Source: Dubosiella newyorkensis (GTDB lineage: Bacteria; Bacillota_I; Bacilli_A; Erysipelotrichales; Erysipelotrichaceae). From it: a stretch of DNA of 32,000 bases. The position numbers and the translations under genes are program-made. Shown piece by piece: positions 283 to 28,243 of this stretch (the first letter of the stretch is position 1; each line of letters begins with the position of its first letter). Location of the stretch: assembly GCF_001945605.1 (NCBI RefSeq), contig NZ_MPKA01000090.1, positions 1-32,000 on the forward strand, given 5' to 3'. The notes under the pieces were generated by a model. The model worked only from the letters and a program-made list of their open reading frames with translations, searched no databases and was not told the origin of the DNA.

Positions 283-386
283 AGATTATTGAAGTAAAAC
301 ACTTCTGTATAGGTTATGTTGTAATGAATGTATATGTGATAGATATTATTATATTTAATCATTTGAAAAGAAAAGGTAATTTAAAC

Positions 387-2057
387 ATGAGTAAAATATT
401 TCAAAAATTAAAAAAACCATCATTCTACATTATTATTGTGCTTATATGTCTAAGAATCTTTTTGGGATGGGCATCTGGAATTCAATTTAACTCTATAGAT
501 ACTTATGATGACGCTTTATTCATCGCTTATACGGATTTACAAACTCACTTTTTGAGCCCAAATTATTTATCCTTGGTAAAGACAATGAGCTTTCCTTTAT
601 TTTTAAATTTTGTTAAAGCTACTGGTTTACAATTTAGCATTATAACCAGTTTACTGTGGATTATTGATGCCTTTTATTTTAAGAGGCTAATCAAAATGAT
701 TTCAAAAAATAAATGGATAGAGTATTTTAGCTTTGTTTATGTACTTTTTTTTCCAACTGCGTTTGAACTTTGGCAAGGAACAAGAGTGTATCGAAATACG
801 ATTATAGCTCCTTTTGTGATGTTTATGTTTATTTATATGATTGAATTTACGTATAAAAATCTTAATCGTCATATTTCAGTGCTTGATTGTTTAATTTCGA
901 TAATCATGAGTATAGTATTTACTTTTACTTATTATATCAAAGAGGATGGTTTATGGCTCTTGGCTTGTTTGCTGTTTTTTATTTTAGTGAATATAGTGAT
1001 CTCGATTTTTAATGTAAAAAAGGTAAAACAAAAAATAAAATATATATTAACTATCTTCCTCTGTTTTTCATTGATGATTTCTGGATTTTCATGTATCACT
1101 AGTTATTATAAGTATACAAACACAAAATATTTCGGTGTTCCTGAGATAGAAACAAGAAATGGCGGCGAGCTAGGGGAATTTGCTGCTAATATCTACAAAA
1201 TTGATTCAAATAAAAGGAATATGATTTACTGGGCGCCTAAAGATGCAATTGATAAAGCGTGGAAAACATCAAAAACTTTGCAAGAGCATCCAGAATTATA
1301 CCAGGCGATTATTAATACTCCATGGTATGGCAATATTGGACAAAATCCAATTCAAGGTGATTTTTTGACGTGGGTTTTACGAACTGCATTATATGATACA
1401 GGTCTTTGGACAAATGAAAAAAATGTTTCTGATCTCTTTCATCAAGTAAATGAAGAGCTAGAAAAAGGTTTCGAAGATGGAACTTTGAAAAAGGATACTA
1501 GGATTCAATTGCTATCATCAGCAGGCGGAAGAACATTTAGAGAAATTATTTCGTTAGCACCACTGGTTTATAAATCATTTTTAGGATCGATCTTTTTAGA
1601 AGGTTATATCCCTGGAATTAATTCTATAGGAAATTCTGAAGACAGTGAAGTAACTAAAAGTGCTGCCGATTATACAAATACTTCTTATATTGAGGATTAT
1701 TCAAAAAAATTTCATTCAAACTTTTTAGATAAAGTCATTCAAATTTTATTTTGGATTTATCGGATTATGAACTGTGTTCTTTTTATCTCGATATTAATTA
1801 CAATAGGTTTCTATCTATTCCGTTTATTTAGATACGGCTTTAAGGCAGTACATAAAAACGCTTCTTTCTTATTCTTGACAAGTTTGATTTGTTTAGGAAT
1901 TGGAGTCGTTTATGCTATAGCAATTTCATGGTTCTCTCAGTTTATTTTTATTAGTGGAGTCAATATGTCAATTCTAAATTTTTATGTAATTGGTCTGCCA
2001 GTTCTTCTTTCGTTTAGTTATTTTACAAGCCTAGTTTATTTAGTTGAATATTCTTGA
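387..2057 (+). CDS. polytopic integral membrane protein, possible GT-C-fold glycosyltransferase (function unproven)
   Basis: From track ORF 324..2057. I prefer ATG 387 (MSKIFQKLKK followed at once by a TM helix); ATG 324 remains possible. There are many hydrophobic helices at both ends around a ~200-aa hydrophilic loop. An acidic DTYDD motif follows the first helix, as in the first outer loop of GT-C enzymes. No family recognised with certainty. Confidence 0.75.
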   Translation: MSKIFQKLKKPSFYIIIVLICLRIFLGWASGIQFNSIDTYDDALFIAYTDLQTHFLSPNYLSLVKTMSFPLFLNFVKATGLQFSIITSLLWIIDAFYFKRLIKMISKNKWIEYFSFVYVLFFPTAFELWQGTRVYRNTIIAPFVMFMFIYMIEFTYKNLNRHISVLDCLISIIMSIVFTFTYYIKEDGLWLLACLLFFILVNIVISIFNVKKVKQKIKYILTIFLCFSLMISGFSCITSYYKYTNTKYFGVPEIETRNGGELGEFAANIYKIDSNKRNMIYWAPKDAIDKAWKTSKTLQEHPELYQAIINTPWYGNIGQNPIQGDFLTWVLRTALYDTGLWTNEKNVSDLFHQVNEELEKGFEDGTLKKDTRIQLLSSAGGRTFREIISLAPLVYKSFLGSIFLEGYIPGINSIGNSEDSEVTKSAADYTNTSYIEDYSKKFHSNFLDKVIQILFWIYRIMNCVLFISILITIGFYLFRLFRYGFKAVHKNASFLFLTSLICLGIGVVYAIAISWFSQFIFISGVNMSILNFYVIGLPVLLSFSYFTSLVYLVEYS

Positions 2058-2275
2058 ACAAAACAACTATAAATAATGATTAATGTGATATATAAGCGTG
2101 ATTATAATAACAAATGAATGAAATCGAAAAGTCTTTAGCTTTGTTTAAAGGCTTTTTATTTTTTGCTATAAGTTATTAATCATTTCTAACATAATATCCC
2201 ATAATTTTATTGATATTTAGTGTTATTTGCTATATCATATACCGTAATAGATAAATATTTTAGAGAGGATCTAGT

Positions 2276-5158
2276 ATGATTAAAAAAGACTATTCTTTGC
2301 TTGTTGCTGCTTTTATTGGCTTAAGCAGTGGATGGGCAGTGATGAATCAAGAAGCTTTAGCAAGTCAATCAGAGGAAGTGTTGGTCGTGGGGGAAGAACA
2401 ACCAGCATCTGAATCACCAAACGAAGATTCTAAATCAACAGTACAAACGGATATAGCTCATGAAGATCCGGATCCTGATATAGAGCCAACTGATGAGGAC
2501 CAGACTCTAGAACAGACCGAAAACGAAGAAGGAACTTCGGGAACTATTTTCCAAAAAGAAGGAGAATCTTCACCAATAGGAAGTTCTACGATAGAGGAAA
2601 AGAAAGACGCAGATGAAGAAGCTCCCATATTGGAAACGAAACCTCAACAAACTGTCGATGTGATTGAAACGAAAGAAGAAGTTCAAATCGCACCGATCAA
2701 AAAGGTCGTGGCAGCACCTATGAAAGCCACCGGCCAAACGGGATGGAACAACAATAAATATTATGAAAATGGCCAATTGGCTATTGGTGAGAAAAAAATT
2801 GGAAATACAACCCATCTGTTTGATAATGATGGAAACCCATTAGTTGGGTTCATTCAATATGATGGTAAACTCGTATTTTGTGATGCTAAAGGCGCCATTC
2901 AAACAGGATCATTTACTTCTGCGGATGGAAGAGGAAAGTTTACAGCCGATTCTACTGGAAAAATCATATCTTCCAATTTAGAAAATATTCCTTATTATAA
3001 CCAAAATGATGGGCAATGGGCTATGATTCATGTCGGAGGACTCACTCTATCTTCGAGTGGCTGCGTAGCAATGACAGCTACTTCAGTAATCAACCACTTT
3101 AATCAAACGCATTATAGTCCTGTAGATATCGCAAGAGAAATGAATAAAAAAGGATATTTGAACGCTCCTGGTGGATATGGTACGACATCTGATGTTTGGG
3201 AATATATTGCTAAAACATATGGTTTGACCTATAAAAATAATTTAGGTTATAACTCGATCATCGATTCTCTTCTAGAAGGAAATATTGTTGCTGGTGCCGT
3301 TGGTTTTAGCAGGTGGTGTCCATATTATGGCGGTGTAACCCATGAGATTTATTTATCGGGATACCGAAATGGACAAGTTTATGTTCATGACCCTCTACAT
3401 GATAATCAACAAGGTTGGTATAGTTTATCTTCTGTCTGGGATGTACGCTCTAAAGACTCGGGCGATAATTTAAATGGAGGCCCATTTTATGCTTTAGGAA
3501 AAATTGTCAAAAAAATTATCAATAGTTCTTTAAGCTCGCAAGGAACGATCGTCATCGGAGATCAAAGATATACAGGAAAACCGATCACAACGAAACCAAT
3601 CGTAGGAATATCTCAAAATGGAAACTATATCCAACTTCAAGAAGGAAAGGACTACACACTTTCTTTTGAAAACAATACAAAACCTGGACAAGCAACGGTT
3701 AGCGTAATGGGTAAAGGACTCTATAAAGGAACTCTAAAGAAAGCTTTTTATATCGTAGATTCAACAATCACAAATTCAAGATATACGATTCATTCAAAAG
3801 GAAATGGAAATCTAGTGATCGATGTGCCTGCCGGATCGAAAAATAAATGCGTTTCTTTGCAGATCTACCAATCCAACGATACAAATGCGCAACAATACTA
3901 TATCGAAAAACAAAAAAACGGCTACTATACGATCAAAAATCGGAATTCAGGTTTGTATTTAACAACTTCTTCAGATTGGAGAAATGTGCATAATGGATTA
4001 AAAGTTACCCAGCAATCACTCAGAAATGATCTATCCAGCTATTGGATGATCCGTTCTACAGCCAATGGGCATGTTTTCTCAACAGCAATAGATTCGGCAT
4101 ATGTCCTTGATATACCAGCCGCTGATTTCCGAAATGGGAATACTTTACAAATTTATACTTACAACGGATCAAAAGCTCAGTTATGGAGCTTGGATGATCT
4201 GGATGCTGTAATAAGAAATGCGGATGCTTTAGCACAAAAATCTAAAGGAACAATAAGTGATGGATATTATGTGATCGGATCTAAGATCAACGGCAATAAA
4301 GTGTTGGATGTAACAGGCGCTAGTACAAACAATGGAGCAAACGTTCAGATCTACACGAACAATGGAACCGACGCACAGCTATATCGAATCAGCTATGAAG
4401 GCGATTATCTCAAAATTATGAATGTTGGATCTGGTAAAGTCTTAGACGTTAATGGTGGATCGACCAAAAATGGAACCAACGTTCAACAATTTGCATGGAA
4501 TGGCACAAGAGCTCAAAAATGGATCGCCGTTAAACTCGAAGACGGTATCAAACTTGTTTCGGCGCTGAATACGAATCTAGTCCTTGATCTAGCTGGCGCA
4601 CAGACAAAAGATGGAACCAATATCGCCATCTATGCAAGCAACAACACAAAAGCGCAACGCTGGACATTCATAAAAAAAGAAGATCCAAGAACGGCTATGA
4701 ATAAAATGGCCCAGCAAGGAAAGAAACTCGTAAATGTCGGAACATACGAGATCCACTCGATGGTCGATGGTTCCTACAATTTGGATGTGACTGCCGCCAA
4801 CAAAAACAATGGAGCCAATATACAGCTCTATGCCGACAATAATACTGGAGCCCAAAGATGGAAAATCAGCTATGACGGGAATGGATACGCTCTCATCCAA
4901 AATATCAATTCCGGGAAGTATTTAGGAACAGCAGGAAATCAGGCGAAAAGTGGACTCAATGTGATTCAGTCGAATTTGAACGGATATGCGACGAAGTGGT
5001 TTTTTAAAAACTTGAACGGAAGCATTCAAATCGTATCGGCTCTCCACAAAGATTATGTATTAGATCTATCTGGAGCACATGCAGTTAATGGAAGAAATAT
5101 TCAATTGTATTCGAACAATGGAACGAATGCACAAAAATGGAAGTTTGTTAAAGTTTAA
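2276..5158 (+). CDS. secreted multidomain cell-wall hydrolase: signal peptide, acidic linker, choline-binding-type repeats, C39-like cysteine peptidase, Ig-like spacer, 3 x ricin-type beta-trefoil lectin
   Basis: RBS AGAGAGGA lies before ATG 2276. Signal peptide is MIKKDYSLLVAAFIGLSSGWAVMNQEALA. A Glu/Asp-rich low-complexity stretch follows. GWNNNKYYENGQLAIGEKKIGNTTHLFDNDGNPLVGF resembles cell-wall (choline)-binding repeats. IPYYNQNDGQW...SSSGCVAMTATSV...THEIYLSGY resembles Peptidase_C39_2. The C-terminal ~460 aa has nine (Q/x)xW subrepeats: AQLW, AQKW, AQRW, AQRW, AQKW plus degenerate ones. Confidence 0.9.
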   Translation: MIKKDYSLLVAAFIGLSSGWAVMNQEALASQSEEVLVVGEEQPASESPNEDSKSTVQTDIAHEDPDPDIEPTDEDQTLEQTENEEGTSGTIFQKEGESSPIGSSTIEEKKDADEEAPILETKPQQTVDVIETKEEVQIAPIKKVVAAPMKATGQTGWNNNKYYENGQLAIGEKKIGNTTHLFDNDGNPLVGFIQYDGKLVFCDAKGAIQTGSFTSADGRGKFTADSTGKIISSNLENIPYYNQNDGQWAMIHVGGLTLSSSGCVAMTATSVINHFNQTHYSPVDIAREMNKKGYLNAPGGYGTTSDVWEYIAKTYGLTYKNNLGYNSIIDSLLEGNIVAGAVGFSRWCPYYGGVTHEIYLSGYRNGQVYVHDPLHDNQQGWYSLSSVWDVRSKDSGDNLNGGPFYALGKIVKKIINSSLSSQGTIVIGDQRYTGKPITTKPIVGISQNGNYIQLQEGKDYTLSFENNTKPGQATVSVMGKGLYKGTLKKAFYIVDSTITNSRYTIHSKGNGNLVIDVPAGSKNKCVSLQIYQSNDTNAQQYYIEKQKNGYYTIKNRNSGLYLTTSSDWRNVHNGLKVTQQSLRNDLSSYWMIRSTANGHVFSTAIDSAYVLDIPAADFRNGNTLQIYTYNGSKAQLWSLDDLDAVIRNADALAQKSKGTISDGYYVIGSKINGNKVLDVTGASTNNGANVQIYTNNGTDAQLYRISYEGDYLKIMNVGSGKVLDVNGGSTKNGTNVQQFAWNGTRAQKWIAVKLEDGIKLVSALNTNLVLDLAGAQTKDGTNIAIYASNNTKAQRWTFIKKEDPRTAMNKMAQQGKKLVNVGTYEIHSMVDGSYNLDVTAANKNNGANIQLYADNNTGAQRWKISYDGNGYALIQNINSGKYLGTAGNQAKSGLNVIQSNLNGYATKWFFKNLNGSIQIVSALHKDYVLDLSGAHAVNGRNIQLYSNNGTNAQKWKFVKV

Positions 5159-5172
5159 TAGGGAGAAAGAAT

Positions 5173-7464
5173 ATGAAGAATAAATGGGTAGCAGGTCTTG
5201 CCGTAGCAAGCGGAATTGGAATCGTTTCCTTAGCCCAAGGAATCCAAATTTTAGCAAACGATGGAAGTGAACCAATCATAATAGCATCAGAAGAAGGAAA
5301 TCAAGAACCAGAAACAATCCAAACTGATGGATTGGATAACAATGAATCTGAATATGAAGACGTTGATCAAAACAATAATGAGAATATCCAAAATCAAAAG
5401 GATGAAGTTCAACAAGAAGAACAATTTTTTGCGAAAGAAGATCAATCGGAAGAAACCATCGATGAATCTAAACTGTTAGAATCTCAAGAACCTGTTGTTT
5501 CTCCAAACGAAGTAGTTGATGATCTTAAAAGCGCAGGGGCAGGATCTGCACAGTATATTAAAGACGGAGAGTATTTTATCGCAAGCTCTTTGAACAGTGA
5601 CAAAGTCTTGGATGTAAACGGTGGATCCAAATCAAATGGCGGGAATGTTCAAATCTATGAAAATAATGGAACGAATGCGCAAATATGGAAAGTTGTTTAT
5701 GACAAAAAAGGAGGCTATTATTCCTTGACCAATAAAGGTTCTGGTAAAGTCTTGGATGTGAATGCAGGTCTTGCTCAAAACAGCAACAATATCCAACAAT
5801 ACGCTTGGAATGGAACAAACGCTCAAAAATGGCACATTGTACCTACTACAGCTGGTTATAAACTTGTCTCAGCCATCAACCCAAATTATGTTCTCGATTT
5901 ATCGGGAGCGAATACAAGAAATGGAACCAATATACAGATCTATCAAAACAACAATACTAAAGCACAAAGTTGGATATTCCAAGAGCTGATCAATGAAGTT
6001 GCGTACTTAGATAAGTTAGCTTCCCAAAATAAAAATACTCTTGAAAATGGAATCTATTTAATTCGAAACACGGGAACTGGAAAGTATTTAACTGTTTCCA
6101 ATAGCTCGAATTCGAACGGAGCGAATATCGAAATAACATCTACTTCAAATCAAGAAACGCAAAAATGGAAAGTGGAACACGATTCAATCGGATATGTAAC
6201 GCTGATCAATATGAATTCTGGCCGCGTATTAGATATTAGCGGCGCTTCAAAAGTCAATGGGACAAACATTCAACAATATGATTCCAACAATACTCGGGCT
6301 CAAAAATGGATCACAATCAAAAATGGGGGAGCTCTTCAACTCATTTCTGCTTTATCTTCCACTTTAAGAATGAGCGTGAACGGATCCAATGTGGACAGTG
6401 AAAAGAATAAAGGAACGAGTGCGTCTCAAGCCTGGGTGTTCACAAAAACAACTTCGATTCGCGAAGAAGCAAGCAATCTTGCTTCCAAAAATAAAGGAAC
6501 CGTTGCAGATGGATATTACGAGTTTCATTCAGCAATCAATGATAAACTCGTTTTCGATATTGCAGGAGCCGAAACAAAAAAAGGCGCCAATTTACAAATC
6601 TACACTTCGAATGGAACAAACGCGCAACGCTTTAAAATTATTACCGATGCTTTGGGCTTCTCTTCGATTCTAAATGTCCATGCAAAAAAATACATTTCGG
6701 TCGCTGGAAGCGCCTCTAACTTCACAAATCTTTCAATATCGGATGATAATTCGAATTCTTGGAATGAAAAATGGATCTTCCAAAAGAATGCGGATGGAAC
6801 GATCAAGATCATGTCAGCAATGAATACGAATTATGTCATCGATATTTTAAGCGGATTAGGTAAAAGTGGCCAAAACGTGCAATTGTATACTTGGAATGGA
6901 ACAAACGCGCAAAAGTTCAATTTAAAAAAGCTGAATATTTCAGATAGCTCAGTTCAGTTTTCGAATTCAAATTATGTTTCAAAATGGGTGCATGCCCATC
7001 AAAACAACTATACGGACGGTAGAGAAGGAAATAAGATCACACATATCACGATCCACCATATGGATGGAGTTTCAAGCGCTGAGAATTGTGGACATGTTTT
7101 CCAGAACCCAAACCGCGAAGCATCGGCTCATTACGGAATTGGAAGAAATGGCGAAATCTGCCAATATGTCGATGAAAAAAATACTGCTTGGGCAAACGGA
7201 AACTGGAATAGCAATCTCCATTCTGTCTCGATTGAAAATTCAGATGGAAGTTATCCAACAGGACATAGCCTAACGACTCAAACGATGAATTCCTTGATTC
7301 GACTCGTCGCAGATATTGCCGCGCGAAATGTTCTTGGCCGTCTAGAATATGGAAAGAATGTCAATGTTCATGGAGATGTCGGAAACACCGCTTGTCCAGG
7401 ACCATATATTCGAAATAATTTAAGCTATATTATTTCTTCGGCCAATAGAATCAATGGATATTGA
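5173..7464 (+). CDS. secreted N-acetylmuramoyl-L-alanine amidase (Amidase_2/PGRP type) with N-terminal 3 x ricin-type lectin array
   Basis: RBS GGGAG lies before ATG 5173, followed by a signal peptide and an acidic Asn/Glu/Gln-rich linker. Nine QxW-type subrepeats are present (QIW, QKW, QSW, QKW, QKW, QAW, QRF, EKW, QKF). The C-terminus ITHITIHHM...ASAHYGIG...NVHGDVGNTACPGPY matches the Zn-amidase (T7-lysozyme-like) signature. Confidence 0.92.
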   Translation: MKNKWVAGLAVASGIGIVSLAQGIQILANDGSEPIIIASEEGNQEPETIQTDGLDNNESEYEDVDQNNNENIQNQKDEVQQEEQFFAKEDQSEETIDESKLLESQEPVVSPNEVVDDLKSAGAGSAQYIKDGEYFIASSLNSDKVLDVNGGSKSNGGNVQIYENNGTNAQIWKVVYDKKGGYYSLTNKGSGKVLDVNAGLAQNSNNIQQYAWNGTNAQKWHIVPTTAGYKLVSAINPNYVLDLSGANTRNGTNIQIYQNNNTKAQSWIFQELINEVAYLDKLASQNKNTLENGIYLIRNTGTGKYLTVSNSSNSNGANIEITSTSNQETQKWKVEHDSIGYVTLINMNSGRVLDISGASKVNGTNIQQYDSNNTRAQKWITIKNGGALQLISALSSTLRMSVNGSNVDSEKNKGTSASQAWVFTKTTSIREEASNLASKNKGTVADGYYEFHSAINDKLVFDIAGAETKKGANLQIYTSNGTNAQRFKIITDALGFSSILNVHAKKYISVAGSASNFTNLSISDDNSNSWNEKWIFQKNADGTIKIMSAMNTNYVIDILSGLGKSGQNVQLYTWNGTNAQKFNLKKLNISDSSVQFSNSNYVSKWVHAHQNNYTDGREGNKITHITIHHMDGVSSAENCGHVFQNPNREASAHYGIGRNGEICQYVDEKNTAWANGNWNSNLHSVSIENSDGSYPTGHSLTTQTMNSLIRLVADIAARNVLGRLEYGKNVNVHGDVGNTACPGPYIRNNLSYIISSANRINGY

Positions 7465-7472
7465 TCAAAAAT

Positions 7473-7506
7473 AAGGAGAATCTGTAAATGGATCACTCCT
7501 TTTTTA
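7473..7506 (+). terminator. possible weak rho-independent terminator after the amidase gene
   Basis: AAGGAG (7473-7478) pairs with CTCCTT (7496-7501) and is followed by a T-run. The 17-nt loop makes it weak. Confidence 0.3.
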
Positions 7507-7547
7507 CTTTTGGATTTGGTATACTTATAGATATCTAGGAGAAGATT

Positions 7548-9785
7548 ATGGATAAACAAAAATTGATCACATTCACAAGCGCGCTATCTGGCGTGGTTCT
7601 TGGAACAACCGCTATGATCACGCAACTAAAAGCAGAAGAAATCAAAACACACCCTTCTAATTCCCCCATAGAACAAGAATTCGATACGACCGAAGCTTCT
7701 CAAGAAGTACAAGATCAATATGCTTTGGAAGAAGAGTCGACCGAAACAAAAAACGAGAAAAAATCGAGCTTCGTTTCAGAACTCGACTCAAACGCTTCAT
7801 TAGAAGAAGAAGGACAAGAGGAATCAATCGAAAACAATGAAGATGAAATACCGAATGAAGAAATCCAAGATCTAAAGATCGCAGGGGCAGGCGCTAACCA
7901 GCTCTTACAAGATGGCGATTACACGATCCAAAGTGCTGTAGATCAAAAATATGTCGTAGACGTAAGTGGAGGCGGAAAACAAAATGGACAAAACATCCAA
8001 ATCTACGAAAACAATGACACCGCCGCGCAAATCTGGAAAGTCCGCTACGATCAAAAAGACGGCACCTATTCCTTCTGGAACGCAGGATCAGGAAAAGTTC
8101 TCGATGTTACAGGAGCCCTGATCCAAAGCGGCACGAACATCCAGCAATATGAATGGAACGGAACAAAGGCCCAAAAATGGATCTTAACACCAACAACGGC
8201 CGGCTTCAAGATCACCTCCGCACTCCATGCAGACTATGTACTCGACCTATACGGAGGCTATGCGACAAACACAAGCAACCTTCAATTGTATAAATCTAAC
8301 AACACCAAAGCCCAACGATGGAACTTTTTACACTATATTTCGAAAGAAGAAACGTTGAAAGATTTAGCCATTAAAAATGTCAAAACACTCGTTGATGGAG
8401 ACTATACGATTTCCAATGTCACCAATAACTATGTATTAAGCGTAGAAAATGGACAAAATAAAAATGGAGCAAATGTAGACCTGGAAAAAAATTATAATTT
8501 TTCTAGTCAAGTTTGGAGAGTCAACCACGATCAAAATGGGTTTATCACCTTTACGAACCTTGGTACAGGAAAAGTCCTCGACGTATTGGGCGCTCAAACC
8601 AACAATGGAAACAACGTTCAATTGTATTCAAACAATGGAACACGCGCTCAAAAATGGGTGGCCATCAAAAGTGGGAACAATTATCAAATCGTATCTGCGC
8701 TAGATCCATATATTCTATTAACGAATTCAAACATGAACAGTACGATCTATGGCAATAAAGGAAATCACGCCTCCCAAACGTGGACTTTCATAAAAGCAGA
8801 ATCTTTAAGAACAAGAATTGATCGTTTAGCTTCTAAAAATAAGAACACAATCAGCGATGGATATTATACGATCCATACGAATCTTGATCCAAATTTTGTT
8901 CTAGATGTAAGCAATGCTTCTAAAGAAAATGGAGCCAATATTCAATTGTATACATCCAACAATACGTTTGCTCAACAATTTAGAGTGCTCAATGATAATC
9001 GTGGATATGTCACGATCCAAAACATCAATTCAGGAAAACTATTGACAGCCGCTTCAGCTGTAAAAAATATGACTAATGTCATTCAAAATGAATTAAACAA
9101 GAGTTCCTACTTGGATAAATGGATCTTGATAAAAAATACGAATGGAACGATCTCGATCGTTTCCGCAGAAAATGACGCCTTCGTTTTAGATGTTACAGCG
9201 GCTCTTGGAATGAATGGGACCAACATCCAATTGTATGAATCCAATGGAACAAAAGCCCAACAATTCACATTCAAACAAGTTGCCAACGATGCTCTATGGA
9301 TCTCGACAAACAATTATTTAACCATCAGCCAAATGGAACATAACGCGACCCTAGTTTGGAACTTTTTTAAAAACCAAGGCTGGACACCGAATGCCGTATC
9401 CGCGATCCTAGGCAATATGCAAGCAGAATCCAATATTAACCCAGGCTTATGGGAAGGGCGCGAAGAAAACAATCTTGATCGTGGATTTGGTTTAGTGCAA
9501 TGGACACCAGCAACCAATGTGATCAATTGGCTCATAGAGAGAGGATATTCCATCACAAGCGGATATGGACAATGCGCTAAGATTTTAGACGAATATCAAT
9601 ATGGCGGACAATATTATGCCACCAAAGAATATCCTTTGAATTTCTACCAATTTGTAAATTCCAAAGAAACGCCAGAATATTTAGCTCTAGCTTTTTTGAA
9701 CAATTATGAACGGCCATATAACCGGAATCAGCCACAACGTTCAGTTTACGCAAGAAATTGGTACAATTTTATAACAAAGCTTTAA
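7548..9785 (+). CDS. secreted lysozyme-like peptidoglycan hydrolase (phage-tail-lysozyme-type domain) with N-terminal 3 x ricin-type lectin array
   Basis: RBS AGGAGA lies before ATG 7548, followed by a signal peptide and an acidic linker. Nine QxW-type subrepeats follow the same degeneracy pattern as the preceding gene (QIW, QKW, QRW, QVW, QKW, QTW, QQF, DKW, QQF). The C-terminus AILGNMQAESNINPGLWEG...GFGLVQWTP...FLNNYERP resembles the Phage_lysozyme2 family. Confidence 0.88.
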   Translation: MDKQKLITFTSALSGVVLGTTAMITQLKAEEIKTHPSNSPIEQEFDTTEASQEVQDQYALEEESTETKNEKKSSFVSELDSNASLEEEGQEESIENNEDEIPNEEIQDLKIAGAGANQLLQDGDYTIQSAVDQKYVVDVSGGGKQNGQNIQIYENNDTAAQIWKVRYDQKDGTYSFWNAGSGKVLDVTGALIQSGTNIQQYEWNGTKAQKWILTPTTAGFKITSALHADYVLDLYGGYATNTSNLQLYKSNNTKAQRWNFLHYISKEETLKDLAIKNVKTLVDGDYTISNVTNNYVLSVENGQNKNGANVDLEKNYNFSSQVWRVNHDQNGFITFTNLGTGKVLDVLGAQTNNGNNVQLYSNNGTRAQKWVAIKSGNNYQIVSALDPYILLTNSNMNSTIYGNKGNHASQTWTFIKAESLRTRIDRLASKNKNTISDGYYTIHTNLDPNFVLDVSNASKENGANIQLYTSNNTFAQQFRVLNDNRGYVTIQNINSGKLLTAASAVKNMTNVIQNELNKSSYLDKWILIKNTNGTISIVSAENDAFVLDVTAALGMNGTNIQLYESNGTKAQQFTFKQVANDALWISTNNYLTISQMEHNATLVWNFFKNQGWTPNAVSAILGNMQAESNINPGLWEGREENNLDRGFGLVQWTPATNVINWLIERGYSITSGYGQCAKILDEYQYGGQYYATKEYPLNFYQFVNSKETPEYLALAFLNNYERPYNRNQPQRSVYARNWYNFITKL

Positions 9786-9878: not shown

Positions 9879-11321
9879 ATGAAAACTAAGCATGCTATTT
9901 ATCTTGTACTTACGATATTCCTTGCTTTTCTATTCATGAATGGAGAACCTATGATAGTAAAAGCCCAACAATCGGATCAAGAAATGAACCCTAAATTGAG
10001 TACTGAAAAAAATGCGAGCCTTGAATTAAAGAGCATGATCGAACAAGAACTTTATCACCAACGAAAAGATCAACCTACCCCAAAAATCGCATCCTTGAAA
10101 ATCCAAAACAATAGGATCGTTGACCAAAAAGGGAAACCGTTCGTACTAAAAGGGATTTCGACCCACGGCATCGCTTGGTTTCCAGAAATCATCAATCAAA
10201 ATAGTTTTACACGATTCAGGGACGATTTTGGGTTGAATACCGTTCGCATAGCTATGTATACTGCTGAAGATGGAGGCTATTGCACAGGAGGAGATCAACA
10301 AAACTTAGAATCGCGCATCGACCAAGGCGTTCAGCTCTGTCAACAATTGAACCTCTATTGCATCATCGATTGGCATATTTTATCCGATCAAGACCCGCTT
10401 CAATATAAAGATCAATCCAAATTGTTCTTTGAAAAAATGGCCCAAAAATACGGAAAAACCCCAAACGTCATCTTTGAAATCTGCAATGAACCCAATGGAA
10501 ATACGACATGGAACGATGTTACCCAATACGCTAATCAAATTATCCCAGCCATAAGAGAACATTCAAACAATCTAATCATCGTCGGAACGCCTACATGGTC
10601 GCAAGATATCGATCAAGCCGCCAGAAAACCATTAAAATACTCCAACATCGCTTACGCCCTCCATTTCTATGCCGCAACCCATAAAGACGATCTAAGAAAC
10701 AAGTACCTTCAAAATGTGAATAAAATACCGATCATCGTCAGCGAATATGGAATTTGCGACGCAAGCGGCAATGGAAACATCGATGAAGCAAACGCCAAAC
10801 AATGGATCGATCTATTAAATAAGAATCAAACAGGAAGGATCCTATGGAACGCATCCAATAAACAAGAAACATCTTCGATTCTTGTACCAGATGCGAACAT
10901 GGAAACATGGAGCCTGTCAGACCTTTCCCCAACAGGACATTGGTTGCTTGACCAAGCAAATCAGAAGAAACCAATAAAATCAGAAAAAAAGGCAGAAGCC
11001 AGAGCTAAACTAACTACAACCTTCCAAGAAACAAATCATTGGGAAAATGGAAATCAATACAGCATGCAGTATTTAGCCTCGATCCAAAACAATACAAATA
11101 AAACAGCTAGCTCTTGGCGTTTTGAAATCAAATTTCCTGAACCCGTTCAGATCGATGATTATTGGAACTGCGAAATCGAACACATTGACCAACGAACATT
11201 CATCTTCAGCAATAAAGAGTATAATTCCAAAATCAAAGCCGAGGATTCAATACAAGATATTGGATGCATCGTTACGAGCGATTCTTTGATCGATCCAAAG
11301 ACGATTCAAATAAATCCATAA
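9879..11321 (+). CDS. secreted glycoside hydrolase family 5 (cellulase-type endo-beta-glucanase) with C-terminal CBM2-like module
   Basis: RBS GAGGAG and a signal peptide ending VKAQQ. GH5 signatures are present: GISTHG, VRIAMY, IIDWH, the acid/base Glu in FEICNEPNG, HFYAATH, and the nucleophile Glu in IIVSEYG. The last ~100 aa (NHWENGNQY...SSWRFEIKF...DDYWNCE) resemble a family 2 carbohydrate-binding module. Confidence 0.9.
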   Translation: MKTKHAIYLVLTIFLAFLFMNGEPMIVKAQQSDQEMNPKLSTEKNASLELKSMIEQELYHQRKDQPTPKIASLKIQNNRIVDQKGKPFVLKGISTHGIAWFPEIINQNSFTRFRDDFGLNTVRIAMYTAEDGGYCTGGDQQNLESRIDQGVQLCQQLNLYCIIDWHILSDQDPLQYKDQSKLFFEKMAQKYGKTPNVIFEICNEPNGNTTWNDVTQYANQIIPAIREHSNNLIIVGTPTWSQDIDQAARKPLKYSNIAYALHFYAATHKDDLRNKYLQNVNKIPIIVSEYGICDASGNGNIDEANAKQWIDLLNKNQTGRILWNASNKQETSSILVPDANMETWSLSDLSPTGHWLLDQANQKKPIKSEKKAEARAKLTTTFQETNHWENGNQYSMQYLASIQNNTNKTASSWRFEIKFPEPVQIDDYWNCEIEHIDQRTFIFSNKEYNSKIKAEDSIQDIGCIVTSDSLIDPKTIQINP

Positions 11322-11384: not shown

Positions 11385-13442
11385 ATGTGGATATTTTTAA
11401 GCACATTATCATATATATTCTTTCTTTTATTGAATATTATCATTTACGCAAAATATTATTTTACCTCGCGACTCACGGTCGGTGGATTTGCTCAAGTGCT
11501 CTATACGCTTCAAAACAGCATGTCCGGATCCGAAAACACAGTCGCCGAAGTGATTGGAGATTTCTTCGCGCGTCAATGGCCTCTGTTGCTGATCGGAACG
11601 CTCGCTTACATCGCGCTGCTGCTCGTTTATATTTACAATAAACAAGGAATACTCAAAACAAAGTTCGATCCCGCCAAATTTACGCAAACACTCAAAGGAG
11701 GCATCATCGTTCTTCTTTGCCTGATGATCTCTGTCGATACTTTTCAAGGAATCGCTTTATATGAAATGCTCGGTATCGGAGAATATCAAGCAAGTCTAGG
11801 AAAAGAAAGTGATCTATACGAAAAATATTATGTCGATGCCAATACGACCGAAATCAAGTTTCCCGAGAAGAAAAGAAATTTGATCTATATATTGTGTGAA
11901 TCCATGGAACAAAGCTATACCGACACAAAAGAAGGTGGCGGCTTTAAAAAGTCGCTCATTCCTGAGCTTACAAAGCTAGCCAAAGAAAACACCGACTTCT
12001 CCGCAAAAGACGACAAAAATTTGAACGGAGGATTAACCCCAGGCAATACAGTATGGACGATCGCCGGAATCGCGGCGCAATCGATGGCCATCCCCCTCAA
12101 TATCGGGAATGGAGAATTCAACCGCAACTTTGAAGATTCGAGCCAGTTCATGCCGACAGTACAAGGACTCGGGGATATTTTAGAGGACGAAGGCTACCAT
12201 AATTACTTTATGTGCGGATCCGATGCCGCGTTCGCGGGCCGTAAAAACTATTACGAGCAACACGGAAACTATCAAATCTTCGACTACAATACCGCTAAAA
12301 AAGATGGGATCATCGATGACGACTACTACGTGTTCTGGGGATATGAAGATAAAAAACTCTTTCAATACGCTAAAAAAGAACTAACGGACATCGCAAAAAA
12401 TGATCAACCATTCAACTTTACGATGCTGACTGTAGACACCCACTTTCAAGATGGATACAAATGTCCAGACTGTCCTGATGAATTTGATTCCCAATACGAA
12501 AATGTCATCAAATGTTCAGACCATAAAGTCGCCGAATTTGTAAAATGGTGCCAAAAACAAGATTTCTACAAAGACACGACAATCGTGATCGCGGGAGATC
12601 ACCAAAGCATGGACGGCTTTGTCGCCGAAGCCGTACCGGATGATTTCACGAGAAAAACATTCTTCACAGTCATCAACGGTCCTGAATATAAACTCAATCG
12701 AACTCGAGAATATTCGACAATGGATATTTTCCCGACAATCTTGGAATCATTAGGCGCGACGATCCAAGGAAGCCGCTTAGGATTAGGGACATCCTTGTAT
12801 TCAGAAACACCTACGCTCATCGAATTGTTAGGTTACGATGAACTTAATCGACAAATGAGTTATACTTCAAAATTCTATAATGAAGTCATCATGAGCGGAG
12901 ATGAATCGAAGATGCCAAAAAAAGAGGGAGAAGAGGAACAACAACCGCAAGAAGAACAACAAGTCGTTCAAGCTCCGACCGCACAAGAATATCAAGCCAA
13001 TCGGGACAACTTCTCCGACTCCAATTATGTATGGACACCACCCGTGTATAATGAACCAGTCTATAACGAACCTAGCTATACGCCACCAGCCCAAGACACT
13101 GGAACAGACAATCCAGGAGACAGTGGAACAACGACTCCACCATCGACAGGAGGAGATAGCGGAACGACGACTCCGCCATCAACAGGAGGAGATAGTGGAA
13201 GTACGACTCCACCATCGACAGGAGGGGATAGCGGAACAACCACCCCACCTTCAAGCGGAGGAGATAGCGGAACAACCACGCCACCTTTAGGTGGAGGAGA
13301 TAGTGGAACAACGACCCCACCATCAACAGGAGGAGATAGCGGAACCACAACGCCACCTTCGACAGGAGGAGATAGCGGGGGAACAACCCCACCATCAACA
13401 GGAGGAGACAGCGGAACGATGCAATCCGCTCCTACAGAATAA
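11385..13442 (+). CDS. LtaS/MdoB-family sulfatase-fold (phosphoglycerol-type) transferase with C-terminal Thr/Pro-rich repeat tail
   Basis: The track ORF starts at TTG 11340. I prefer ATG 11385, which lies 10 nt after GGGAGGG. There are N-terminal TM helices, then NLIYILCESMEQSY, GNTVWTIAG, TVDTHFQ and IAGDHQS, typical of the LTA-synthase/OpgB sulfatase fold. The tail has PVYNEPVYNEP and then GGDSGTTTPPST repeats. Confidence 0.85.
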   Translation: MWIFLSTLSYIFFLLLNIIIYAKYYFTSRLTVGGFAQVLYTLQNSMSGSENTVAEVIGDFFARQWPLLLIGTLAYIALLLVYIYNKQGILKTKFDPAKFTQTLKGGIIVLLCLMISVDTFQGIALYEMLGIGEYQASLGKESDLYEKYYVDANTTEIKFPEKKRNLIYILCESMEQSYTDTKEGGGFKKSLIPELTKLAKENTDFSAKDDKNLNGGLTPGNTVWTIAGIAAQSMAIPLNIGNGEFNRNFEDSSQFMPTVQGLGDILEDEGYHNYFMCGSDAAFAGRKNYYEQHGNYQIFDYNTAKKDGIIDDDYYVFWGYEDKKLFQYAKKELTDIAKNDQPFNFTMLTVDTHFQDGYKCPDCPDEFDSQYENVIKCSDHKVAEFVKWCQKQDFYKDTTIVIAGDHQSMDGFVAEAVPDDFTRKTFFTVINGPEYKLNRTREYSTMDIFPTILESLGATIQGSRLGLGTSLYSETPTLIELLGYDELNRQMSYTSKFYNEVIMSGDESKMPKKEGEEEQQPQEEQQVVQAPTAQEYQANRDNFSDSNYVWTPPVYNEPVYNEPSYTPPAQDTGTDNPGDSGTTTPPSTGGDSGTTTPPSTGGDSGSTTPPSTGGDSGTTTPPSSGGDSGTTTPPLGGGDSGTTTPPSTGGDSGTTTPPSTGGDSGGTTPPSTGGDSGTMQSAPTE
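13113..13418 (+). repeat. in-frame 36-bp tandem repeat, ~8.5 copies, encoding (G/P)GDSGTTTPPST
   Basis: Read directly. The units are head-to-tail with no spacers. Copies differ mainly at synonymous third positions, for example ggaggagatagcggaacgacgactccgccatcaaca versus ggaggagatagtggaacaacgaccccaccatcaaca. Confidence 0.95.
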
Positions 13443-13448
13443 ATACAA

Positions 13449-13489
13449 AAAACAGAGTTTGCATTCATTGAACAAACTCTGTTTTTTTC
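13449..13489. terminator. bidirectional rho-independent terminator between convergent genes
   Basis: A perfect 11-bp stem, AACAGAGTTTG (13451-13461) with CAAACTCTGTT (13473-13483), and an 11-nt loop. An A-run lies upstream and TTTTTTT downstream. Confidence 0.85.
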
Positions 13490-26771: not shown

Positions 26772-26800
26772 AAATCTAAAGAGTGCAGGAGGACAAACCT

Positions 26801-28243
26801 ATGTTTATCAAAGATGAAGCCTTAAGAGAGGCAGTTGCACGAAACCTAAAAATCAAAGAGGATGAGCTTACCCCAGAATCGCTGCAAGGACTCATCCATC
26901 TCGAAGTGCCCGATATGGAGATCAAATCGCTAGAAGGACTCCAATATGCGGAAAACCTGGAATTTTTAGACGCTAGTGGCAACAACTTACAATCGCTTGA
27001 ACCGATCAGAGATCTAAGAAACGTCTTGACTCTGGATGTTTCGAGCAATCAGCTTCGCGATATCCAAGCGCTGCATGGCTATCGTCAACTGAAAAAACTC
27101 AATATATCCCGAAATAATTTGTATACGATGGACATTTCGAGCATCGCTGGCATGATCCATCTCGAAGTGCTTGATCTGAAGAAAGCGAAGATCGACTCTT
27201 TAGAGCACATCATCCATTGTAAAAAACTCGAAGAACTAAGGATCAATACCGAAAATGGACCCTTCAACTATTCCATCTTAGGCACGCTCAAACATTTGAA
27301 GAAACTGGATATGTCGGGAATGCGCCGATTTTATATCGACGATCTGACCTACATCTCGACACTAGAAAGCTTGAATCTTTCGACTAATTTAATGAGCGAT
27401 CTTTCACCGCTCCTTTCCATGACGCATTTAAAAGAGCTGGATGTAAGCAACAACCCATACTTGAAAGATTATACGATCTTGGAAGAATTCCCATCGCTGA
27501 AAAAGCTCAATATGAACTATAACGAGCCGAACAACTTTGATTTTTTGAAAAATCTTCCGCTTTTGGAGGAGCTTTCGATGGAACAGACCGGCTTTCATGA
27601 TATGGAGCTTCTCAATCACATGAAAAGCTTATGTGTTCTGAACGTATCGAAAAACGATCTGAAAAATGTCGATCGATTCCGCAATGTCGAGAATCTAGAA
27701 AGTTTGAAGGCCGAATTCTGCCAGCTTACCAATGTCGATTTCTTGAAACATGCGCACAAGCTGGAAAGCCTCGATCTCTTTACGAATCGCATCACGAGCA
27801 TCGACGTATTGAGAGAGGATAAAAATATCGTCGAATTGAATGTTGGACGCAACCAGATCCGTGATATCGAGTGCTTGAAGGATATGAAGCAGCTCGCGAT
27901 CCTATCCCTAGAAAACAACGATGTCCACAATATCGAGCCATTAGCCGGACTGGATAATTTGTGCATGATCGATCTCTACAATAACGTGATTTCTGATCTC
28001 AAACCGCTAGAGCACCTTGAATATGTATCGTATCTGCGTTTGGATCACAATGCGATCATCGATCTGACTCCGCTCAAACATTTGAAATTCTTGCGCTCAT
28101 TGACGCTGAAAGCCAACTACATCACGGATGTTTCGCCACTTAAAGACCTTCGATTGCTTGAAGCGCTCCGTCTAGATGACAATCCGATCGCGGATACTTC
28201 CGTATTGGAAAGCATGGAATTTTATGATAAGTTCACAGATTGA
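26801..28243 (+). CDS. leucine-rich repeat protein (internalin-type ~22-aa LRRs), no signal peptide or anchor
   Basis: The track ORF starts at GTG 26783. I prefer ATG 26801, 8 nt after GCAGGAGGA. About 20 consecutive LxxLxLxxNxIxDIxxL units are present, for example LEFLDASGNNLQSLEPIRDLRN, LTLDVSSNQLRDIQALHGYRQ and LRSLTLKANYITDVSPLKDLRL. Confidence 0.88.
   Translation: MFIKDEALREAVARNLKIKEDELTPESLQGLIHLEVPDMEIKSLEGLQYAENLEFLDASGNNLQSLEPIRDLRNVLTLDVSSNQLRDIQALHGYRQLKKLNISRNNLYTMDISSIAGMIHLEVLDLKKAKIDSLEHIIHCKKLEELRINTENGPFNYSILGTLKHLKKLDMSGMRRFYIDDLTYISTLESLNLSTNLMSDLSPLLSMTHLKELDVSNNPYLKDYTILEEFPSLKKLNMNYNEPNNFDFLKNLPLLEELSMEQTGFHDMELLNHMKSLCVLNVSKNDLKNVDRFRNVENLESLKAEFCQLTNVDFLKHAHKLESLDLFTNRITSIDVLREDKNIVELNVGRNQIRDIECLKDMKQLAILSLENNDVHNIEPLAGLDNLCMIDLYNNVISDLKPLEHLEYVSYLRLDHNAIIDLTPLKHLKFLRSLTLKANYITDVSPLKDLRLLEALRLDDNPIADTSVLESMEFYDKFTD

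Follow-up and report, generated by a model that had tools for sequence, protein, structure and literature searches.

In a 32,000-nucleotide (nt) stretch of DNA from Dubosiella newyorkensis, a bacterium of the mouse gut (NCBI assembly GCF_001945605.1, contig NZ_MPKA01000090.1, positions 1 to 32,000; hereafter the window), three tandem open reading frames (ORFs) on the + strand encode P1 (960 amino acids, aa), P2 (763 aa), and P3 (745 aa), each of which joins three ricin-type β-trefoil modules in series to a catalytic domain of peptidoglycan-hydrolase type. Our preferred reading, to which we give a probability of roughly two in three, is that P1-P3 are housekeeping autolysins held by these basic and multivalent trefoil arrays on a glycopolymer of the producer's own wall, with a rhamnose-containing one as the best candidate. 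Autolysins docked on a wall polysaccharide had been the first of three roles proposed in an initial annotation of this DNA, and both the enzymes to which related arrays are attached and the synteny of the locus favour it.

That annotation had described three adjacent genes, each with a signal peptide, an acidic linker, and nine (Q)xW subrepeats forming three trefoils, a layout that our analysis of ORFs, composition, and Pfam matches confirmed, and all of the motifs that it quoted were found in the sequence. Each protein opens with the elements of a Sec-type signal peptide, namely a basic n-region, a hydrophobic core that scores 1.8-2.2 in its best 12-residue Kyte-Doolittle mean, and then a site similar to A-x-A, and behind it lies a low-complexity disordered segment of 87-120 aa with 28-31% Asp+Glu and an isoelectric point (pI) of about 4.05. 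The three genes and their parts have the following positions in the window.

2276..5158, + strand: P1, with signal peptide, acidic linker, choline-binding-like hairpins, C39-like Cys peptidase, immunoglobulin (Ig)-like spacer, and three ricin trefoils
2276..2725, + strand: P1 signal peptide (aa 1-30), followed by the acidic and disordered segment (aa 31-150; pI 4.05, Asp+Glu 28%)
2726..2983, + strand: P1 choline-binding-type β-hairpins (aa 151-236), about three and degenerate (GWxxNKYY..., LFDNDGNP...), Choline_bind_3 below threshold
2984..3514, + strand: P1 C39-like Cys peptidase domain of papain fold (aa 237-413), predicted from homologues, family profile, and AlphaFold2/Foldseek
3515..3787, + strand: P1 spacer, probably an Ig-like β-sandwich (aa 414-504; weak Pfam matches to Sgo0707_N2, E=4.6e-4, and MBG_3, E=0.12)
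3788..5155, + strand: P1 triple ricin array (modules a, b, and c; aa 505-960), 7/9 canonical subsites, pI 9.5
5173..7464, + strand: P2, with signal peptide, acidic linker (aa 29-125), three ricin trefoils, and Amidase_2
5548..6942, + strand: P2 triple ricin array (aa 126-590), 6/9 canonical subsites, pI 9.3
6970..7461, + strand: P2 Amidase_2 domain of the N-acetylmuramic acid (MurNAc)-L-Ala amidase type (aa 600-763), Pfam E=2e-20, His/Tyr/Glu/His/Thr/Cys set kept
7548..9785, + strand: P3, with signal peptide, acidic linker (aa 30-116), three ricin trefoils, and gp13-type lysozyme
7896..9287, + strand: P3 triple ricin array (aa 117-580), collinear with the P2 array, 6/9 canonical subsites, pI 8.8
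9315..9782, + strand: P3 lysozyme-like domain of the phi29 gp13 N-terminal type (aa 590-745), Phage_lysozyme2 E=2e-32, PDB IDs 3CSR/3CSQ

Lectin arrays and catalytic domains

To place the arrays among known domain families, P1-P3 were compared with Pfam, and, as had been expected from the initial annotation, both RicinB_lectin_2 (PF14200; E=2e-77, 3e-75, and 1e-59, with bit scores of 256, 250, and 199, the cut-off being 25.6) and Ricin_B_lectin (PF00652; E=4e-28 to 1e-32, with 99-113 bits against a cut-off of 29) were matched above threshold in all three proteins. Alignment of the 27 (Q)xW-type subrepeats, nine per protein, gave three modules of about 140 aa each, and the linker between modules is conserved, helical, and of the form LASKNKNTxxDGxY. 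Structure prediction, which had been suggested for the lectin arrays, returned a confident β-trefoil of 12 strands for P2 module a (AlphaFold2; predicted local distance difference test, pLDDT, 95.5). With Foldseek, this model superposed on ThreeFoil (PDB ID: 3PG0) with a template-modelling (TM) score of 0.93 and a root-mean-square deviation of 1.2 Å, on the CBM13 module of 3VSF with a TM of 0.93, and on MTX and botulinum HA33 with a TM of 0.88-0.92. Here, we noticed that 19 of the 27 subsites retain the canonical Asp, aromatic, and Asn/Gln residues and are predicted from sequence to bind sugar, and that the subsites lost in P2 and in P3 are the same ones. Moreover, the identity between modules ranges over 26-59% across the three arrays: P1b and P2a share 59%, P2a and P3a 58%, P1c and P3c 54%, and both P2b-P3b and P2c-P3c 41%, while P1a reaches 31-40% with any other module. 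The arrays are hence diverged paralogues, collinear in P2 and P3 and with a distinct first module in P1, and the 'one lectin module' earlier ascribed to the trio does not hold.

More conspicuously, a search with P2 gave more than 6,300 proteins with closely related ricin arrays at E<=1e-10, and partner domains were counted in the best 120 of these matches. A peptidoglycan-acting domain is present in 113 of the 120, and the partners are divided as follows.

YkuD L,D-transpeptidase: 56
Glucosaminidase together with Amidase_3: 40
Glucosaminidase or Amidase_3 alone (partial): 3
Phage_lysozyme2: 9
Amidase_2: 5
None recognised: 7

A re-scan confirmed YkuD at the C-terminal side of the ricin array, and in P0181 from Holdemanella, an Amidase_3 domain (248-447), a ricin array, and a Glucosaminidase domain (1153-1279) follow each other. 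With Dubosiella, Holdemanella, and 'Erysipelotrichaceae bacterium 66-17' as its named carriers, the ricin-array architecture is lineage-wide in the Erysipelotrichaceae and not an oddity. Because the same module is carried by wall-building L,D-transpeptidases, it would seem to target the producer's own wall, and the description of the trio as a 'demolition kit', or as a weapon against competitors, is undercut by these same observations. The initial annotation had also considered that the architecture might turn out to be a common and already characterised autolysin family; it is common, as the more than 6,300 proteins attest, but no characterisation of it was found.

The catalytic domain of P1 required a more roundabout identification. 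On its own, it had no match in Pfam, NCBIfam, PHROGs, or a PDB sequence search, and Peptidase_C39_2 (PF13529), which was the expected family, gave no match to the isolated domain even at E<=10. A word-indexed search with P1 residues 150-496 found 3 homologous proteins only, and an exhaustive representative search with the domain found 448 homologous clusters. In 54 of 74 whole homologues, Peptidase_C39_2 was matched (best E=1.4e-16), and their partner domains included Choline_bind_3 (45/74), GBS_Bsp-like repeats (18), and ricin (8), as well as ChW, SLH, LPXTG anchors, and GH25. The family profile aligned with a 'putative C39-like peptidase' in the PDB (PDB ID: 3ERV; E=3e-6), including both the GC and the H...DP motifs, and the same structure was the first Foldseek hit (E=5.5e-6) of the AlphaFold2 model (pLDDT 96.1), followed by the pseudomurein endoisopeptidase PeiR, the phytochelatin-synthase-like Alr0975, and the C39 domains of PCAT1 and ComA. 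The modelled fold is papain-like, with the nucleophile Cys at the N-terminus of a helix and the His and Asp on the sheet. In fact, Gln243, Cys263, His356, and Asp372 of P1 (Gln7, Cys27, His120, and Asp136 of the domain) reach 99-100% conservation in a set of 152 sequences, and they do not vary in our alignments A1 and A3. By transitive homology, profile match, and predicted fold, the P1 domain is C39-like, and peptidase activity is predicted for it, with contextual support from a fusion with Amidase_2 in a relative and from a phage C39_2 protein, both of which are described below. The earlier call of a papain-like C39-type peptidase thus stands through homologues, profile, fold, and an intact Gln/Cys/His/Asp set, but not through the direct Peptidase_C39_2 match that was to be expected for P1 itself.

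Similarly, the choline-binding-type repeats that had been assigned to P1 hold in part. Choline_bind_3 matched one stretch with 11.6 bits (cut-off 27; E=0.27), and about three hairpins compare with a criterion of four or more tandem repeats; the expected CW_binding_1 match was not obtained. Even so, the hairpin region aligns with a stretch of the homologue P0004 that does match Choline_bind_3. The spacer behind the catalytic domain (aa 414-504) is 64-68% conserved with Dubosiella muris.

Rather more directly, Amidase_2 (PF01510) was matched at P2 residues 619-744 with 73.7 bits (cut-off 26) over 130 of the 131 profile positions. The His of IHH, AHY, IE, VH, and the Thr and Cys of NTACPG are invariant in four homologues of this domain, and we take these residues to be the Zn ligands and the catalytic Tyr/Thr, as equated with those of T7 lysozyme and the PGRPs. 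When a profile of this domain was compared with the PDB, AmpDh2, PGRP3, and AmpD were matched, with the SAHY region aligned, and the domain also matches phage endolysin families in PHROGs, down to E=2e-36. In P3, Phage_lysozyme2 (PF18013) was matched at residues 599-741 with 113 bits (cut-off 28.2), and phi29 gp13 with E=4.7e-38 over residues 5-157 (PDB ID: 3CSR; also 3CSQ). The MQAES of P3 aligns with the MQSES of gp13, such that its Glu corresponds to gp13 Glu45, which is the proposed catalytic residue (PMC10394673). Both the amidase and the phage-tail-type lysozyme had been named in the initial annotation, and they are borne out here; on alignment, the catalytic residues are present in P1, P2, and P3 alike.

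Conserved gene neighbourhood and a candidate ligand of the arrays

A public copy of P2 with 99% identity is annotated as 'RICIN domain-containing protein [Dubosiella newyorkensis]' (NCBI), and the trio locus is also found in GCA_041448535.1 and in many metagenome contigs. A survey of related genomes for co-occurrence of the trio, as earlier proposed, revealed that the hydrolase set is kept in other lineages at about 47-73% identity and that it is syntenic in at least five lineages. In D. newyorkensis, D. muris, Erysipelotrichaceae bacterium OPF54, and metagenomic lineages, the set sits between the dTDP-rhamnose genes rmlB-rmlD and an LtaS-like gene. Moreover, rmlB-rmlD and the LtaS/OpgB-like gene adjoin the hydrolases in every related locus that extends far enough, despite changes in order and strand, and the pairing persists in the rearranged loci L007 and L020. 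Further upstream in the relatives are rmlA, rmlC, GT2, GtrA, a GtrII-type GT-C gene, and an orthologue of ORF1, the gene that precedes P1 in the window. These conserved neighbours point to a rhamnose-containing or glycerol-phosphate-modified polymer, rather than to the sugars of the galactose/N-acetylgalactosamine (Gal/GalNAc) type that the initial annotation had named as the classical ligands of such modules.

The composition of the hydrolase set is itself variable. D. muris has four genes, for C39-ricin, ricin-Amidase_2, a second C39-ricin, and ricin-lysozyme proteins, and one metagenomic lineage has C39, C39, and lysozyme. In OPF54 (L011 9527-13393; also L019), a C39-like domain, a longer ricin array, and Amidase_2 are combined in one protein of 1288 aa, with a ricin-lysozyme gene next to it, and this natural fusion of P1-type and P2-type domains ties P1 and P2 to one substrate. 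In L007 (10001-13329) and L020 (9317-12847), a C39-ricin homologue with an extra C-terminal domain of about 140 aa is the sole hydrolase between the LtaS-like gene and rmlDB. This extra domain had no Pfam or PDB sequence match, and an assignment to the 3D/DPBB type, which neither search supported, was dropped. The L007 copy carries a frameshift at the catalytic Cys. Between D. newyorkensis and D. muris, identity is 51-73% in the arrays, which are thus no less conserved than the catalytic domains with 47-69%, and 24-27% in the acidic linkers. For P1, the acidic segment is 25-27% identical to those of the D. muris orthologues, compared with 47-73% in the folded domains.

According to the mechanism that we propose, P1-P3 would be exported by the Sec pathway and then associate non-covalently with the cell wall of the producer. 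There, the triple β-trefoil array, with its pI of 8.8-9.5 and 6-7 predicted sugar sites, would hold each enzyme on the wall, in the role played by the GW, SH3b, LysM, or choline-binding repeats of other Gram-positives. The ligand would be a secondary wall glycopolymer, the best candidate for which is a rhamnose-containing and possibly glycerol-phosphate-modified polymer made by the flanking rmlB-rmlD, GT2/GT-C-type, and LtaS/GacH-like genes. The C39-like peptidase of P1 would cut a stem-peptide or cross-bridge bond, the Amidase_2 domain of P2 the MurNAc-L-Ala amide, and the gp13-type lysozyme of P3 the glycan strand, with wall turnover, growth, and daughter-cell separation as the expected roles. 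If the arrays do read the polymer of the adjacent genes, then it would be this polymer, instead of the peptidoglycan, that sets the place and time of wall cleavage. A structure of a β-trefoil lectin with bound rhamnose exists (PDB ID: 6IFB). In Enterococcus faecalis, the gene of EpaU, an autolysin of the GH25 type, lies in the EPA rhamnopolysaccharide cluster, and the wall-binding domain of EpaU binds that very polymer (PMC13131664). Streptococcal rhamnose polysaccharides are modified with glycerol phosphate by GacH, a transferase that is LtaS-like (bioRxiv 10.1101/337519).

Several points weigh against own-wall autolysins with a rhamnose-containing ligand. While our analysis shows the domain identities, the intact catalytic residues, the folds, the conservation and synteny across species, and the presence of this array type on many wall enzymes, we infer that the arrays bind the wall, precisely which bonds are cut, and what the enzymes do for the cell, and the identity of the ligand is read from the gene neighbourhood alone. 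The nearest solved trefoils (HA33, MTX, fungal agglutinins, and CBM13) recognise sugars of the Gal/GalNAc type, which makes a ligand other than rhamnose quite possible, and peptidoglycan itself or a host glycan remain candidates. To our knowledge, no peptidoglycan bond is biochemically defined for the C39-like family, and the solved structure nearest to the P1 domain, 3ERV, is itself uncharacterised. P2 and P3 have catalytic domains of a phage-like character, which would fit an offensive role as well. In D. newyorkensis, the adjacency of rmlD and the hydrolases seen in relatives is interrupted by genes for a DUF6020 membrane protein and Transposase_mut, which lie between rmlD and ORF1 (L001 1742-4838, in GCA_041448535.1). 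Finally, the taxonomic spread of the array subfamily is known from a few named proteins, and our view of the wall-binding modules of D. newyorkensis is that of this window.

Alternatively, the arrays could bind the glycan strand of peptidoglycan (N-acetylglucosamine/MurNAc), with the rml and LtaS-like neighbourhood as a case of general envelope-gene clustering, and P1-P3 would still be autolysins. A universal ligand fits a module found on many different peptidoglycan enzymes, and it likewise suits arrays that are well conserved between species; the link between array and rhamnose is an indirect one. Set against this are the survival of the rmlBD/LtaS-like pairing through rearrangement in L007 and L020, an array pI that suits an anionic polymer, and the precedent of EpaU, whose gene lies within the cluster of the polymer bound. 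While this is the alternative that survives best, we regard it as unlikely.

A killing or host-directed role is much less likely than that of autolysins of the own wall. As exported bacteriolysins, similar to class III bacteriocins, P1-P3 would kill competitors that bear the glycan recognised by the arrays, with the three catalytic domains acting jointly. All three proteins are secreted, their genes are clustered, their predicted activities are jointly directed at peptide, amide, and glycan bonds, the catalytic domains of P2 and P3 belong to the phage endolysin/tail-lysin type, and the long acidic N-terminal segments could be pro-regions. However, no FemABX-like or other immunity gene was recognised among the ORFs of the window or in related loci (as the initial annotation had already remarked for the vicinity), an unrecognisable one being possible. 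Moreover, the locus is chromosomal, not mobile, and syntenic with wall-biosynthesis genes in at least five lineages, the same array subfamily is found on L,D-transpeptidases and Atl-like bifunctional autolysins, and the arrays are conserved between species instead of diversifying. Bacteriolysins thus appear quite improbable to us. That the arrays bind host or dietary glycans such as mucin Gal/GalNAc, as a mucus tether, for muropeptide release near the host, or chiefly as adhesins, is very improbable: D. newyorkensis lives in the gut as a commensal, the solved trefoils nearest to the arrays have the fitting sugar preference, and a GH5 glycanase gene is adjacent, but peptidoglycan enzymes, including transpeptidases that need a bacterial wall, are found on 113 of the best 120 array proteins, the conserved neighbours are rml and LtaS-like envelope genes and not mucin-utilisation genes, and the Pfam scan of P1-P3 revealed no sortase signal or other adhesin feature.

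Transcription, neighbouring genes, and phage occurrences

The other features of the locus that are considered here are the following.

324..2057, + strand: ORF1, a multi-pass membrane protein of 577 aa, with a 51%-identical orthologue inside the rmlA/GT2/rmlBD cluster of D. muris (L012 5704-7458)
2210..2238, + strand: promoter-like site TTGATA-17-TATCAT 5' of P1, with a 10/12 consensus match from which its function is proposed
9879..11321, + strand: secreted GH5 glycanase ('cellulase') with a CBM2-like C-terminus (Pfam), between the hydrolase genes and the LtaS-like gene
11385..13442, + strand: LtaS/OpgB/GacH-like phosphoglycerol transferase, with a terminator hairpin 3' at 13447-13487

The gene upstream of P1 ends in a hairpin and T-run at 2120-2162 (free energy, dG, -11.7 kcal/mol), 3' of which lies the promoter-like site, and a good Shine-Dalgarno sequence is found at every gene of the locus. 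As the P1 stop and the P2 start are separated by just 14 nt, these two genes are probably co-transcribed. A consensus terminator scan gave nothing between the genes from P1 to the LtaS-like gene, but folding of the intergenic regions did reveal AT-rich hairpins with T-runs 3' of P2 (7469-7505; dG -9.1 kcal/mol) and 3' of P3 (dG -10.2 kcal/mol). Since the first of these precedes P3, this gene may have its own promoter, and the two hairpins together suggest that P3 and the GH5/LtaS-like pair may be separate transcription units. A single operon from P1 through the LtaS-like gene was dropped on account of these hairpins, and it is only for P1 and P2 that co-transcription is well supported. When the entire window was compared with Rfam, no RNA family was matched.

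Among the neighbours, ORF1 had no Pfam or NCBIfam match, and judged by gene context only, it may be an unclassified GT-C-type glycosyltransferase. A GH5 copy with 69-71% identity is found 3' of the LtaS-like gene in the OPF54-like loci L011, L018, and L019, and the enzyme might act on a dietary glycan or on an envelope polymer of the cell itself. As for the LtaS-like gene, its start is probably ATG 11385 and not TTG 11340, given the GGGAGGG Shine-Dalgarno sequence at the former and the gene call of 685 aa in the NCBI assembly, which would make the 700-aa form an artefact; its 3' terminator is strong and bidirectional (dG -16.4 kcal/mol). The C-terminus of its product consists of GGDSGTTTPPST repeats, encoded at 13115-13417 by a 36-nt tandem repeat in 8.4 copies. 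Across assemblies, the lengths of this product differ in steps of 12 aa (673 vs 685 and 688 vs 700 aa), which suggests strain-level copy-number variation in the repeat tail. Farther away, at 26783-28243, a leucine-rich repeat protein of 486 aa (LRR_4; E=2e-41) is encoded with housekeeping genes on both sides.

A megablast of the locus against phages gave no match, and the surrounding genes, which have envelope and housekeeping functions, show no sign of a phage or plasmid. A prophage or endolysin origin of the locus was rejected, there being no phage DNA match, no phage genes nearby, and Sec signal peptides on all three proteins. In the GenBank phage set, tblastn found no related ricin-bearing lysin, the only matches being a high-guanine+cytosine (GC) amylase contig and Paenibacillus MTX-like toxins. 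The former, MT839838.1 (L014; 'Bacteriophage sp.', human faeces, unverified), encodes a high-GC α-amylase-like multidomain protein that ends in a ricin module, and it is probably bacterial DNA mislabelled as phage. Likewise, the IMG/VR scan revealed no ricin-bearing endolysin, and a single ricin-bearing tail-region protein. This protein of 557 aa with a 44%-identical ricin module (UViG_3300045988_144662; L015 5482-7155) is encoded directly 3' of the tape-measure gene, and on the same contig (L015 10565-12243), a C39_2+SH3_3 protein follows a holin-like ORF of 94 aa, as a pair that resembles a lysis cassette. This one contig, a thin basis as a single case, would fit a ricin module that binds a host surface glycan and C39_2 as a lytic domain.

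Comparison with known systems

What is already known comprises the genes, which are public under generic names, the enzyme classes, and the general design in which a modular hydrolase carries a domain for wall binding. New would be the ricin-type trefoil array as such a domain, for which we found no description, an absence that is not proof. Surveys of endolysin and autolysin domains and a review of cell-wall hydrolases (PMC6403190, PMC8051824, PMC8223927, and PMC13284279) make no mention of ricin, trefoil, or lectin, and a literature search, which covered few subscription-journal papers, gave nothing that links ricin-type domains to peptidoglycan hydrolases, autolysins, endolysins, or Dubosiella. 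Nor did the literature yield a defined substrate bond for the C39-like subfamily or the gp13-type lysozyme family. The trio itself probably consists of ordinary housekeeping autolysins, such that it is the binding module, rather than any new mechanism, that gives the finding its value.

More broadly, the ricin trefoil arrays might constitute a new class of Gram-positive wall-binding domain, the main one to place wall enzymes in the Erysipelotrichaceae and present in phage tails too, which reads a rhamnose/glycerol-phosphate polymer, though we put this forward tentatively and at somewhat less than even odds. Members of the Erysipelotrichaceae abound in the gut and reportedly affect the host, yet the biology of their envelope has hardly been studied. 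If the arrays are a general wall-targeting module, they would add a class of wall-binding domain that is usable for lysins or fluorescent probes specific to this family, point to an uncharacterised wall glycopolymer and its biosynthesis genes, and explain thousands of 'RICIN domain-containing protein' annotations in gut metagenomes. In any case, a lineage-wide lectin fold as a wall anchor offers a useful and directly testable lead, and the three enzymes, together with one natural fusion, form a defined set for determining the bond specificity of the C39-like and gp13-type domains.

Compared individually, the trefoils resemble those of R-type lectins (ThreeFoil, the CBM13 of Clostridium thermocellum Ct1,3Gal43A, MTX, and HA33) in fold (TM 0.88-0.93), QxW repeats, and Asp/aromatic/Asn-Gln residues. 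In contrast, the latter are modules of toxins, hemagglutinins, and glycoside hydrolases for Gal-type or plant glycans, whereas in P1-P3 three trefoils stand in series on peptidoglycan enzymes. The P1 domain shares with C39-like peptidases such as 3ERV from Bacillus anthracis the papain fold, the Gln-Cys-His-Asp set, the YYxQxDxRW...GC...H...DP motifs, and the wall-binding repeats, and it is not of the C39 type that processes bacteriocins in ABC transporters. A C39-like peptidase is also listed among the catalytic domains of Gram-positive phage lysins (PMC8223927). The closest likeness of P3 is to the N-terminal lysozyme-like domain of the phi29 tail-knob protein gp13 ('morphogenesis protein 1'; PDB IDs: 3CSQ and 3CSR), at E=5e-38 over 155 residues. 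However, gp13 belongs to the virion, carries a LytM-type endopeptidase at its C-terminus, and has neither signal peptide nor lectin, while P3 is chromosomal and Sec-exported, with its array N-terminal to the lysozyme domain, and gp13 Gln54 is aligned with a Glu in P3. For lack of functional data, the gp13 family had no CAZy number (PMC10394673).

Class III bacteriocins (lysostaphin, zoocin A, and enterolysin A) are alike in being secreted peptidoglycan hydrolases with a target-recognition domain, but they come with a dedicated immunity gene and are often plasmid-borne or mobile, and neither feature was found for P1-P3. EpaU is similar in having its gene beside those of a rhamnose polysaccharide, and its binding of that polymer is the mechanism that we propose for P1-P3. 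Where it differs is in having another catalytic domain and a different, strain-variable binding domain, whereas P1-P3 are three enzymes whose arrays are conserved across species and whose polymer binding is predicted. In plan, P1-P3 resemble such modular autolysins as Staphylococcus aureus Atl, the choline-binding pneumococcal LytA, and the LysM/SH3b hydrolases, with which they share a secreted catalytic domain, a multivalent, basic, and repeated wall-binding region, often an N-terminal pro-region, and the distribution of amidase, glycosidase, and peptidase activities over several paralogues. Among their relatives, Holdemanella P0181 repeats the amidase-repeats-glucosaminidase order of Atl, with trefoils in place of the Atl repeats. 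They depart from these autolysins in that their predicted binding region is a ricin-type β-trefoil array.

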